A stretch of 64,000 nt of DNA from NCBI RefSeq assembly GCF_045037415.1, contig NZ_CP173440.1. One strand, given 5' to 3'. Below the pieces are notes generated by a model. The model searched no databases. It worked only from the letters and a program-made list of their open reading frames with translations, and was not told the DNA's origin. The DNA is from Escherichia coli (GTDB lineage: Bacteria; Pseudomonadota; Gammaproteobacteria; Enterobacterales; Enterobacteriaceae). Below are positions 11,359 through 13,995 of this stretch, piece by piece. The translations under genes and the position numbers were made by a program. The stretch's first letter is position 1. Every line of letters starts with the position of its first letter.

Positions 11359-11492
11359 CTGGATTTAACATAACGCACATTAAGCGCACTAATGCTGTAA
11401 TGGCTCAATAGTAATGTCCGCCTGTGGCTCAATTCAGATGTCCGCGCTATGGTAAGCTTCACTGGTCCGTTTAAACTACCGGGAGGCATATC

Positions 11493-12896
11493 ATGAGCGC
11501 AGAAAGCTCAGGAGTGTTTACTTTGAAAGAGATCAACCGGATCAAGATTATACAGGACGTCATTGAACGTCGCATCACAACGCGCCGTGCGGCCGAGCAC
11601 CTCGGTATCAGCGACAGGCAATGCCGCAGACTTCTTGCCCGTTACCGTGAAGGGGGACCGCTTGGTATGGCCAGCAGACGATGTGGCATGCGTGGTAACC
11701 GCCAGTTGCCACCCGGGCTCGCAGATCAGGCTCTGGAACTGATCAAGACGCGTTATGCTGATTTCGGTCCGACTCTGGCGCGTGAAAAGCTCGAAGAACT
11801 CCACGGACTGTTTCTTGGCAAAGAAACTGTCCGGCGCATCATGGTGCGGGCTGGCTTATGGGTTCCCCGTAAACAACGTGCCGCAAGGATCCCTCAACCA
11901 CGGTACCGGCGTCCGTGTACTGGTGAGCTGATACAAATAGATGGCTGTGATCACGACTGGTTTGAAGGCCGTGGCCCGGCCTGCACCGCGCTGGTCTATG
12001 TTGATGATGCAACCAGCAAACTGATGGAACTGTTGTTTGTTAAATCGGAGTCCACGTTTTCTTACTTCGAAGCCACGCGGCGCTATATCGATAAGCATGG
12101 TAAACCGCTGGCACTGTACAGCGATAAAGCCGGTGTTTTTCGTGTTAACAATAAACACGCCACAGGCGGAGACGGGCATACTCAGTTTGGGCGAGCCATG
12201 CATGAACTGAACATCCAGACTATCTGTGCAGAAACCAGTCCCGCCAAAGGGCGTGTAGAACGAGCTCACCTCACTTTACAGGATCGTCTGGTCAAAGAGC
12301 TGCGGTTACAGGGCATTGGTTCAATGGAGGCTGCAAATGACTTCGCTGAGGCCTATATGGCTGACTATAACCGCCGTTTTGGCAAAGTACCGCGACATGA
12401 TTTTGACGTACACCGTGCTGTAGAACATGATGAGGACCTGGGGCTTATTTTCACTGTTCGTGAAAAACGTAAAGTCTCAAAATCGTTGACGATACAATAT
12501 GATAAAATGTTGTACCTGATTGAAGACAGCGAACTGAGTCGCCGTGCAATAGGTAAATATATCGATGTGTATCACTATCCTGATGGCAGAAAAGAGCTGC
12601 GCCTGAACGGTACGCTACTTCCCTACTCTACCTACGACCGACTGTCAGAAATCGACCAGGGCGCGATTGTCGATAACAAGCGTCTTGGCCGAACCCTGGA
12701 GTTTATCAGTCTGGTGCAGAGCAAGCGGGATAACACGCGCTCTCAGTCAATTCCCGCTGGAGATGGCCCTTCCCGACGACGGCCAAAGCAGGAAGGGAAG
12801 AAATCCCAGCGCTCACTGGATAATGATGACATGCTCGAAGCACTCAAACAGCTTCAGTCACGTTCAGAGGACATTTTTGGTAAAAGAGCCCGCTGA
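11493..12896 (+). CDS. ISNCY-family DDE transposase
   Basis: 467 aa with HTH N-terminus and rve-like DDE core (IQIDGCDHDW…, LALYSDKAG). Confidence 0.65.
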   Translation: MSAESSGVFTLKEINRIKIIQDVIERRITTRRAAEHLGISDRQCRRLLARYREGGPLGMASRRCGMRGNRQLPPGLADQALELIKTRYADFGPTLAREKLEELHGLFLGKETVRRIMVRAGLWVPRKQRAARIPQPRYRRPCTGELIQIDGCDHDWFEGRGPACTALVYVDDATSKLMELLFVKSESTFSYFEATRRYIDKHGKPLALYSDKAGVFRVNNKHATGGDGHTQFGRAMHELNIQTICAETSPAKGRVERAHLTLQDRLVKELRLQGIGSMEAANDFAEAYMADYNRRFGKVPRHDFDVHRAVEHDEDLGLIFTVREKRKVSKSLTIQYDKMLYLIEDSELSRRAIGKYIDVYHYPDGRKELRLNGTLLPYSTYDRLSEIDQGAIVDNKRLGRTLEFISLVQSKRDNTRSQSIPAGDGPSRRRPKQEGKKSQRSLDNDDMLEALKQLQSRSEDIFGKRAR

Positions 12897-12924
12897 TGGT
12901 ACTCACTGGCCGGACAGTGGTTGC

Positions 12925-13569
12925 TCACCAGTTGATATTGTCCGGCCAGACCCATGATGTATTATTCATTTCGTTCAGCATCTTTATGTCCTGCTTTTCA
13001 CGGGCATACTTACCCCATAATGAATGAAAAGAACGAACAATACTGATTAACTGCTTTTTTCTTTGCTCCGGAGATAAGCTGATAAAATAGCAGCACCTGC
13101 TGTCAATATTATCCTCTATGAAATTAAAATCAGAGTCTGATGCATATTTTACTGTTAGCATAATATCATTCGACGTTGTTCTCTCAGACTCTGTTAATGC
13201 TGATTCTATCAGGTATTCAAAGGCATACATGACAGACAACTGGTTTTTGTCTGTCTGAATATAACCCATTGAGTTTCTGAGTATTGAGGACTGTACCAGG
13301 ACCAGAGGCCATAAAAGCTCAACACCATAAAGCTTATATGTATCATGTTGATCATACTGATGTTGCTCAACACGACGATTACCTTCCCGTGCTTTACGAA
13401 TATCATAGGCAAGGGATAACATAAATCCGTCTTTAACTTTAATCAGTGGGCTTTCATCCACGATGTAATGAATGAGTTCATGTAATTCATTCAGGGCTTC
13501 TGAATCTCCCCACAGTATAAAACCTGCATTGTTCGGCGTTAACTCGTATCGAAGCATGGGCTCAATCAT
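12925..13569 (-). CDS. hypothetical protein carried inside the ISNCY element
   Basis: 214-aa ORF lying between the transposase gene and the right inverted repeat. Confidence 0.35.
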   Translation of the reverse strand: MIEPMLRYELTPNNAGFILWGDSEALNELHELIHYIVDESPLIKVKDGFMLSLAYDIRKAREGNRRVEQHQYDQHDTYKLYGVELLWPLVLVQSSILRNSMGYIQTDKNQLSVMYAFEYLIESALTESERTTSNDIMLTVKYASDSDFNFIEDNIDSRCCYFISLSPEQRKKQLISIVRSFHSLWGKYAREKQDIKMLNEMNNTSWVWPDNINW

Positions 13570-13995
13570 CCTGTTGTTTCAGTCGGAGGAAAGTCTATCA
13601 GTAAAGAGAATGAGAGATCAAAGTGGACATTTTAATTGAGCCGGATAACGGACATTTCAATTGAGCTTTGACAAATGCTGTCAGCACAAAGCGTTATTGT
13701 CGTCTCAGCACAATTCACACGCGTCGTGTACGCTAAGCCTTCATTTTGCTCAGCACAGGACCGCGATCTTATATTGGCTAGACAAAGTCTGTAACTCCAA
13801 TATTCTAATGTCACTTTTGGGGCTGCGGATGTTTTCCTGGACTGTTATGTTGTGATCCCAAGATGCTGCCGGTACTTCACCGGACTCATTGCACCTAATG
13901 ATAGTAGACTGGCCCCATGAATCTCCAGACAGTTGGTATAACTTAAGTTAGTGATAGTCTTAATACTAGTTTTTAGACTAGTCGTTGGAGTCCGG

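Follow-up and report, generated by a model that had tools for sequence, protein, structure and literature searches.

An ISKpn21 insertion sequence on an Escherichia coli plasmid and its DUF6904 passenger gene, a probable self-contained cargo

Introduction

What does a gene of the opposite strand do inside an otherwise ordinary insertion sequence (IS)? The question is raised by a 64,000-nucleotide stretch of Escherichia coli plasmid DNA (RefSeq assembly GCF_045037415.1, contig NZ_CP173440.1; "the window" hereafter means this whole 64-kb stretch). In it, an earlier note made from the letters alone had described an ISNCY-family, IS1202-group element with a passenger open reading frame (ORF) of 214 amino acids (aa) between the transposase gene and the right inverted repeat. 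In our analysis, the element is very probably an intact copy of the known ISKpn21, and its passenger is likely a self-contained cargo gene that benefits the replicon carrying it. ISKpn21, its passenger and its targeting of dif sites are already published and the element itself is ordinary: two surveys of 2022-23 (bioRxiv 10.1101/2022.12.17.520857; PMC10132070) list it as a passenger-carrying IS that targets Xer sites, with the gene given as 'hypothetical'. What is added here is the assignment of the gene to DUF6904, the evidence for selection on it, its apparently unmatched fold, the spread of its family over unrelated mobile elements and the variable cargo of sister elements.

Results

Identity and ends of the element

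Judged by its junctions, its length and the labels of identical copies, the 2278-bp segment at 11396-13673 is very probably an intact ISKpn21 of the IS1202 family, ISAba32/ISAjo2 subgroup. The ends were placed by comparing the junctions of seven ISKpn21 copies, three on plasmids (this one included) and four on E. coli chromosomes. In all seven, identity starts at TGTAATGGCTC and stops at GAGC[T/C]TTGACA, and because the copies diverge exactly there, the ends lie at 11396 and 13673; the resulting 2278 bp is the published length of ISKpn21 (PMC10132070, PMC5001619). These seven independent insertions share the terminal tips TGTAATGG... on the left and ...GCTTTGACA on the right. Target-site duplications (TSDs) of 5 bp match in 6 of the 7 copies, the flanks of the copy in locus L007 being mismatched (TACAG / ACAG; loci retrieved for comparison are given L numbers), and the duplication in the window is AATGC, at 11391-11395 and 13674-13678. 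The earlier note had correctly recognised inverted repeats but had set the ends at 11402 and 13666, 6-7 bp too far in, at the outer copies of a 17-bp motif. This motif, GCTCAATnnnAATGTCC, occurs twice in each end of ISKpn21 with a distance of 24-25 bp (4 matches against 0.56 expected). The features of the element are the following:

11391-11395, no strand: left target-site duplication AATGC (junction comparison)
11396-11443, plus strand: left inverted repeat (IRL), with the tip TGTAATGG and two direct copies of GCTCAATnnnAATGTCC (11403-11419 and 11427-11443)
11493-12896, plus strand: ISKpn21 transposase gene (tnp), 467 aa (NF033594; RefSeq name on identical copies)
12925-13557, minus strand: passenger gene of the DUF6904 family, 210 aa from the Met at 13557; longest ORF 12925-13569, 214 aa (PF21845; WP_001567369.1)
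13592-13621, minus strand: putative passenger promoter, TTGATC, 18-nt spacer and TGaTAGACT (extended -10), read from the sequence
13625-13673, minus strand: right inverted repeat (IRR), with two copies of the 17-bp motif (13625-13641 and 13650-13666) and the tip ...GCTTTGACA
13674-13678, no strand: right target-site duplication AATGC (junction comparison)

The inverted repeats, TGTAATGGCTCAATAGTAATGTCCG and TGTCAAAGCTCAATTGAAATGTCCG, match at about 20 of 25 positions between the ends of the window copy, versus a published '25/25' for ISKpn21; imperfect terminal inverted repeats of about 24-26 bp are usual in the IS1202 family, as are DDE transposases of 400-500 aa and, for ISAba32/ISAjo2, duplications of 3-6 bp, usually 5. 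In addition, 2265 bp (11402-13666) are 100% identical to copies labelled ISKpn21 by RefSeq/PGAP. The name used here rests on these labels together with the published length, transposase size and target; the ISfinder rule for the same IS is more than 95% nucleotide or more than 98% aa identity to the reference. The transposase matched the NCBIfam model NF033594, 'ISNCY family transposase' (ISNCY_2 equivalog), with E 2.9e-148 and 494 bits (cut-off 250) over profile positions 1-367 of 368, and Pfam HTH_23/28/32 domains were found at its N-terminus, in agreement with the family first proposed.

With ISKpn21 as listed in ISfinder (ISNCY/IS1202, ISAba32 = ISAjo2 subgroup; first described in K. pneumoniae ATCC BAA-2146), the window copy shares the 2278 bp, the 467-aa transposase, the 5-bp TSD, a dif-like site whose XerC side lies 5 bp away and, on the opposite strand, one passenger ORF; no difference in these features was detected. 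ISAjo2, ISAba32, ISSen13, ISLad2 and ISBcen27 have in common with it a DDE transposase with an N-terminal HTH, ends starting with TGT, TSDs of 3-6 bp and oriented XerC/XerD targeting, but, unlike ISKpn21, they are 1.5-1.7 kb long and carry no passenger. The transposases of ISKpn21 and ISAjo2 are 44% identical (PMC10132070).

Circle junctions of ISKpn21 have been found experimentally, and its circular intermediates with a 5-bp linker correspond to a copy-out-paste-in route (PMC4048246, PMC5001619); a promoter formed at the junction has been suggested (bioRxiv 10.1101/2022.12.17.520857). From the sequence alone, the TTGACA at the tip of the IRR (13668-13673, plus strand), an outward-facing -35 hexamer, is consistent with this route, by which the window copy would also move.

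The element is widespread. A best match of at least 99% identity was obtained in 1,281 plasmid records, mostly from Klebsiella, and at least 80% of the element is covered in 1,247 plasmid records and in 49 of 5,426 complete E. coli genomes. The matching records are annotated 'ISNCY-like element ISKpn21 family transposase' together with 'DUF6904 family protein' or 'hypothetical protein'. Over 14 kb, the window is 100% identical to IncHI1B/IncFIB Klebsiella plasmids such as phvKpST395_NDM1_1657.

The passenger is a conserved gene

As the earlier note had stated, the passenger lies on the opposite strand between tnp and the right end; the junctions of the seven contexts place it inside the inverted repeats. 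A profile search of its product, which had been proposed as a check, returned no transposition-related domain but Pfam PF21845 (DUF6904), with E 8.1e-48 and 163.7 bits (cut-off 27), residues 6-214 of the ORF matching profile positions 1-238, that is, the full length. The 214-aa ORF is present as described, although the gene itself is probably 210 aa long and starts at Met5 (13557): this start is backed by the RefSeq annotation and used by nearly all homologues, the upstream ATG is absent in relatives and the beginning MLRYE is conserved.

Conservation within related IS copies, the other proposed check, was also found. The gene, whose absence from all related IS copies would have counted against the earlier note, is present in every ISKpn21 copy retrieved in full and intact in hundreds of copies. 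In diverged ISKpn21-like elements from Salmonella (L019), Buttiauxella (L023), Ewingella (L024) and K. michiganensis (L022), it adjoins the IRR and converges with the transposase gene, as in the window. Identity at the aa level among ISKpn21 relatives is 68-97% for the passenger (68-80% in the diverged relatives) versus 88-99% for the transposase (88-93% in the diverged relatives), and dN/dS is 0.10-0.19 versus 0.04-0.05, with dS near or beyond saturation. The full-length PF21845 match argues against a chance ORF, and taken with these ratios it indicates that the passenger is a real gene under purifying selection. The contrary view, that the ORF is a chance or decaying frame or a piece of flanking plasmid DNA, has nothing in its favour but the absence of a known function, and we give it hardly any credence: the seven junctions put the gene within the repeats, and a Pfam E of 8e-48, a dN/dS of about 0.1-0.2, a predicted fold of high confidence and hundreds of intact copies all speak against it.

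The GC content of the passenger is 38.9% versus 51.9% for the transposase gene, which suggests a foreign origin as acquired cargo. Between the inner IRR motif and the start codon lies the TTGATC-18 nt-TGaTAGACT block, whose TGnTAG[A/T]CT part is kept in relatives despite diverged flanking sequence, and we infer that this block may be the passenger's own inward-facing promoter.

Cargo slot of the sister elements

A conserved gene at a fixed place in an IS could also serve the IS, as an ISKpn21-specific accessory or regulatory factor: a transposition inhibitor, a factor acting on the IS ends or on XerCD, or a convergent gene whose antisense transcription damps the transposase. Purifying selection and co-divergence with the transposase would fit such a role, and so would the arrangement of the two genes, which converge with 28 bp between their stop codons, no plus strand terminator having been detected between them. 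In ISKpn21 and its close relatives, moreover, DUF6904 is always kept beside the IRR, even where other cargo lies before tnp (L019, L008-13 and L017). Against it stand the nearest relatives by transposase (70-77% aa identity) that have no DUF6904. They have the same end architecture, with the double 17-bp end motifs and the ...GCTTTGACA tip, the same type of TSDs and the same Xer-site target. What differs is the gene content between tnp and IRR.

The first of these sister elements, on the E. hormaechei plasmid NZ_CP095671.1 (L099, 2889-5649), is 2761 bp long, has a transposase 72% identical to that of ISKpn21 and a TSD AAGTC, adjoins a dif-like site and carries as passenger a Shedu SduA nuclease (PADLOC 6e-115); 54 plasmid records cover at least 80% of it, and no literature linking Shedu and IS1202 was found. 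A second one (L100) has three small ORFs in the slot and a TSD AACAT. The third, of about 7.2 kb, on the C. freundii plasmid CP085739.1 (L101, ~124-7312; transposase 77% identical, TSD TATAA(A), beside a dif-like site), holds arsH-arsR-arsB-arsC, a universal stress protein (USP) gene and a SulP transporter gene between tnp and a double-motif IRR. ISKpn65, ISKpn63, ISRel10, ISShal2 and these unnamed sisters resemble ISKpn21 in keeping cargo between tnp and IRR; the cargo itself differs from that of ISKpn21, being SduA in L099, three small ORFs in L100 and arsHRBC-USP-SulP in L101. The passengers of the named transporter ISs are reported to be unrelated to one another (bioRxiv 10.1101/2022.12.17.520857; PMC10132070).

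Since sister elements without DUF6904 have the same ends and target, DUF6904 would not be needed for transposition or targeting in this lineage. With this gene inside its terminal repeats, ISKpn21 is a known transporter IS, the term for an IS that carries between its repeats one or more genes dispensable for transposition. As far as the compared elements go, the slot between tnp and IRR holds genes adaptive for the host or the element; in the ISKpn21 clade these have so far been DUF6904, Shedu, an ars operon and a muramidase/lipoprotein pair. The passenger would ride inside the IS with its own promoter, outside the transposition and site-targeting machinery.

Two further observations had seemed to favour an accessory factor. 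One is that two unrelated DUF6904 genes have a dif-like site (GATTCG[C/G]ATAA-N6-TTATGGAAC) 40-90 bp downstream (L043, ~6681; L061/L095). The other is that ISKpn21 forms many circles but gives few transpositions (PMC5001619), for which scarce and occupied target sites are a sufficient explanation. Together with the sister elements, the homologues found in Tn3-family transposons, plasmid backbones and islands with unrelated transposases or none, and the failure to detect any DNA-binding or other known domain in the passenger, this makes a role as accessory factor unlikely.

Genomic company of DUF6904 genes

In Enterobacterales, homologues of at least 55% identity lie almost all in ISKpn21-like elements or their remnants, some of which hold extra cargo. 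A Salmonella contig (SRR12513698) contains an ISKpn21 relative of about 5.3 kb (L019, 4885-10177) that adjoins a dif-like site. Besides the transposase and DUF6904, it encodes a 769-aa protein whose C-terminus carries an N-acetylmuramidase domain (PF11860), and it has an ORF of 147 aa; the latter two look like an effector/immunity-type pair. DUF6904, a 192-aa ORF and a transposase remnant make up L008-13. Degraded versions of the L019 type adjoin clusters of the type VI secretion system (T6SS) in Salmonella and Citrobacter. A link to T6SS effectors and immunity proteins was therefore considered, given that the copies of Tatumella, Citrobacter and Salmonella follow a T6SS cluster and one relative carries a muramidase, and it was set aside, since IS end motifs mark the copies of Citrobacter and Salmonella as remnants of ISKpn21-like elements and the passenger has no consistent toxin pairing. 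In the Tatumella locus, where DUF6904 also follows a T6SS cluster, no IS end motif was found.

Outside this group the company changes. In one Paraburkholderia genome (GCA_054654755.1), two copies of a block with different flanks (L089/L090) consist of a tyrosine recombinase gene (DUF3701 + Phage_integrase), a 368-aa ORF, DUF6904 and a Tn3-family tnpA, and DUF6904, which ends 13 bp upstream of tnpA, appears to be part of the tnpA operon of the transposon. DUF6904 homologues are thus found as passengers right upstream of a Tn3-family tnpA (L089/L090), and also beside toxin-antitoxin (TA) pairs (L043). The transposase and mechanism of Tn3-family transposons are unlike those of ISKpn21, so that the likeness is one of parallel cargo use and not of element homology. 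In an alphaproteobacterial conjugative element, DUF6904 closes the operon of the type IV secretion system (T4SS), after the coupling-protein gene. Behind this DUF6904 gene (L095, 8642-8844) lies a dif-like site with an inserted IS1202-family IS and the TSD GCTTG. The orientation of the site in L043 would make an incoming ISAba32-type IS convergent with DUF6904, as in ISKpn21, and this is a possible route of capture. Integrases, AbiH, PD-Lambda-5, methyltransferases and SRAP give other loci the look of variable islands.

A conserved company is found in rhizobia. In about 25 loci DUF6904 follows a co-oriented Phd-PIN pair after a gap of about 38 bp, with a tyrosine recombinase, beside repABC. 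Divergent DUF1403 and ScpB-like genes, together with TniA/TniB/TniQ, often stand before this module of tyrosine recombinase, Phd, PIN and DUF6904 (L092-L094; loci L047-L088), which repABC adjoins in either orientation; the module may represent the end of a Tn5053-like element. A different role is conceivable from here, namely that of a maintenance factor that works together with TA or site-specific recombination modules, perhaps as a modulator or third component of TA systems, in which case the ISKpn21 copy would be an orphan. The rhizobial position directly downstream of Phd-PIN and near recombinase and repABC speaks for this, although these cases probably go back to one inherited arrangement. 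DUF6904 also stands 10 bp after a TumE/HTH pair (L043) and 49 bp after an AbiEii-like gene (L079), and the antitoxin families BrnA and PSK_trans_fac are among its neighbours. The three types of toxin are nevertheless unrelated, which makes a specific partnership unlikely; mobile elements often carry TA genes in any case, and most non-rhizobial loci and all ISKpn21 copies are without an adjacent TA pair. We consider such a maintenance role improbable. Over 69 loci, no conserved gene partner of DUF6904 was found outside the rhizobial recombinase-Phd-PIN module and the IS and Tn3 contexts.

The DUF6904 family and its predicted fold

The family comprises 364 clusters at 50% identity and is spread over Proteobacteria and a few other phyla. 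The passenger protein is soluble and acidic (pI 5.2), with no hydrophobic segment. An AlphaFold (AF2) model, built with an 88-sequence alignment, reached a predicted local distance difference test score (pLDDT) of 95.2 and a predicted template modelling score (pTM) of 0.91; the predicted fold begins at the N-terminus with a four-stranded alpha/beta part, after which comes a helical bundle. Invariant or nearly invariant are G12, G17, D18, R54, K55, R61, P84, Q89, R94, E114, E118 and R166, and we speculate that this charged constellation might fit binding of a ligand or nucleic acid, or catalysis.

Searches of the Protein Data Bank (PDB) with the single sequence and with the 88-sequence profile gave no match below E 0.07, and the fold is apparently one without a solved relative. 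For the passenger, no matches were obtained in NCBIfam and PHROGs and, unlike for the SduA passenger, no family among the anti-phage defence models of PADLOC-DB v2 at E up to 1, weak Pfam matches over the 88 DUF6904 members were scattered single hits only, and longer homologues contained no informative domain fusions. Literature searches for DUF6904, PF21845 and WP_001567369 returned nothing.

Target site and neighbouring insertion sequences

To the left of the element lies its target, and to its right are traces of other IS1202-family elements:

11363-11390, plus strand: dif-like XerD/XerC site (xrs), ATTTAACATAA-CGCACA-TTAAGCGCACT (site scan)
13679-13777, plus strand: 99-bp left-end remnant of a second, different IS1202-family element (99% identical to L007 5277-5375)
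13790-13817, plus strand: short remnant like the left end of a third IS1202-family type (93% identity over 28 nt to L100 5908-5935; a weak, short match)

The dif-like site is the single match in the window, with 0 expected by chance. In 7 of 7 copies an equivalent site ends exactly 5 bp left of the IRL, on the side of the XerC arm, with the consensus ATTTAACATAA-N6-TTAxGCGCACy (XerD arm, spacer, XerC arm), and in E. coli chromosomes the target is dif itself, beside hipBA. Oriented insertion at XerC/XerD sites is the published behaviour of the ISAba32/ISAjo2 subgroup and of ISKpn21 (bioRxiv 10.1101/2022.12.17.520857; PMC10132070). An ISKpn21 inside a dif module of an HI1B plasmid has been described with the same TSD on the other strand (PMC10132070, Table 8: GCATT, XerC arm AGTGCGCTTAA), and the reverse complement of the window site matches that site and its TSD GCATT except for one spacer base. 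As in the pdif/dif modules known from Acinetobacter and Enterobacterales plasmids, insertion took place at a XerC/XerD site of a plasmid; in contrast to them, there is a single dif-like site in 64 kb, so no flanked module is visible here.

An IS hotspot had been proposed from the proximity of an ISL3 copy, put at about 43 bp. The gap in fact measures 37 bp (11359-11395): 4 bp are followed by the 28-bp Xer site and then by the 5-bp duplication. The clustering itself is borne out, but not as a chance pairing with ISL3, since ISKpn21 targets the dif-like site and stubs of other IS1202-family elements lie to its right; the place can be called a hotspot because these elements used the same Xer site. 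ISKpn21 landed at the window's sole dif-like site, which other members of its family had hit before. Stacks of ISs at one Xer site have been described by Siguier and co-workers (bioRxiv 10.1101/2022.12.17.520857) and were seen again in L007 and L100. In L007, the segment matching the 99-bp remnant (5277-5375) lies before the gene of a 448-aa ISNCY transposase that stands right behind another ISKpn21 copy; in L100, the matching segment (5908-5935) is the left end of an IS1202-family element (transposase 52% identical) stacked behind a sister IS. The stubs right of ISKpn21 are cut by an IS3-family element that starts near 13856.

In L007 (E. coli plasmid NZ_CP020059.1), positions 5277-7575 hold four IS1202-family transposase genes or fragments of different types, head to tail behind a single dif-like site, an extreme case of serial targeting of one site. 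An 'HTH protein' behind the second IS of L007 was examined as a possible passenger and rejected, as it is an N-terminal transposase fragment. The ISL3-family element of the window (10017-11358, annotated ISCfr12) ends 4 bp from the XerD arm. Its flanks (GATAAAGC on the left, CTGGATTT on the right) contain no matching target duplication of 8 bp, a sign that the region was probably rearranged later. More transposase fragments lie at about 15057-15539.

Other genes in the window

A 218-aa ORF at 8014-8670 (minus strand) matches DpdC of PADLOC (E 1.4e-42), which belongs to 7-deazaguanine DNA-modification systems, and has a weak match to Pfam DUF6884. The region may be a fragment of a Dpd-like cluster; the three ORFs downstream (8700-10061, minus strand) gave no family matches. 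Right of the IS cluster, at about 15789-22000 (L001, 11790-16064), there are housekeeping paralogues: hemB, dihydroorotase, an M14 carboxypeptidase and a short threonine-tRNA ligase-like gene.

Discussion

Of the roles considered for the DUF6904 passenger of ISKpn21, self-contained adaptive cargo outside the transposition machinery is the one we hold to be likely. We propose that the gene is retained because it benefits the replicon that carries it. What the benefit would be can be said with much less assurance: a role in conflicts between mobile elements or with phages, or in maintenance of the element, is a tentative suggestion. Slightly more doubtful still is the wider idea that DUF6904 is a new stand-alone conflict protein (in defence against phages or plasmids, in anti-defence or in immunity), its fold lacking a solved relative, and that the ISKpn21 clade consists of dif-site-homing mini-transposons which spread adaptive cargo among Enterobacterales plasmids and chromosomes.

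Several points weigh against reading the gene as independent cargo. DUF6904 is the constant IRR-proximal gene of the ISKpn21 lineage, even in elements with extra cargo (L019, L008), which also fits a role for the element. A scan with a promoter consensus did not report the putative passenger promoter. The links to TA and recombinase genes may just reflect life on mobile elements, and most of the rhizobial loci probably derive from a single ancestral arrangement.

Few genes of unknown function are copied as widely on clinical Klebsiella plasmids as this passenger, with more than 1,200 records. Because purifying selection on it is clear and unrelated mobile elements have it too, the whole Pfam DUF could be given a function by a simple screen for phenotypes. 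With close relatives that hold Shedu or an ars operon in the same slot, the ISKpn21 lineage acts as a small cargo vehicle aimed at Xer sites, and this bears on how defence and resistance genes may reach plasmid backbones and chromosomal dif regions.

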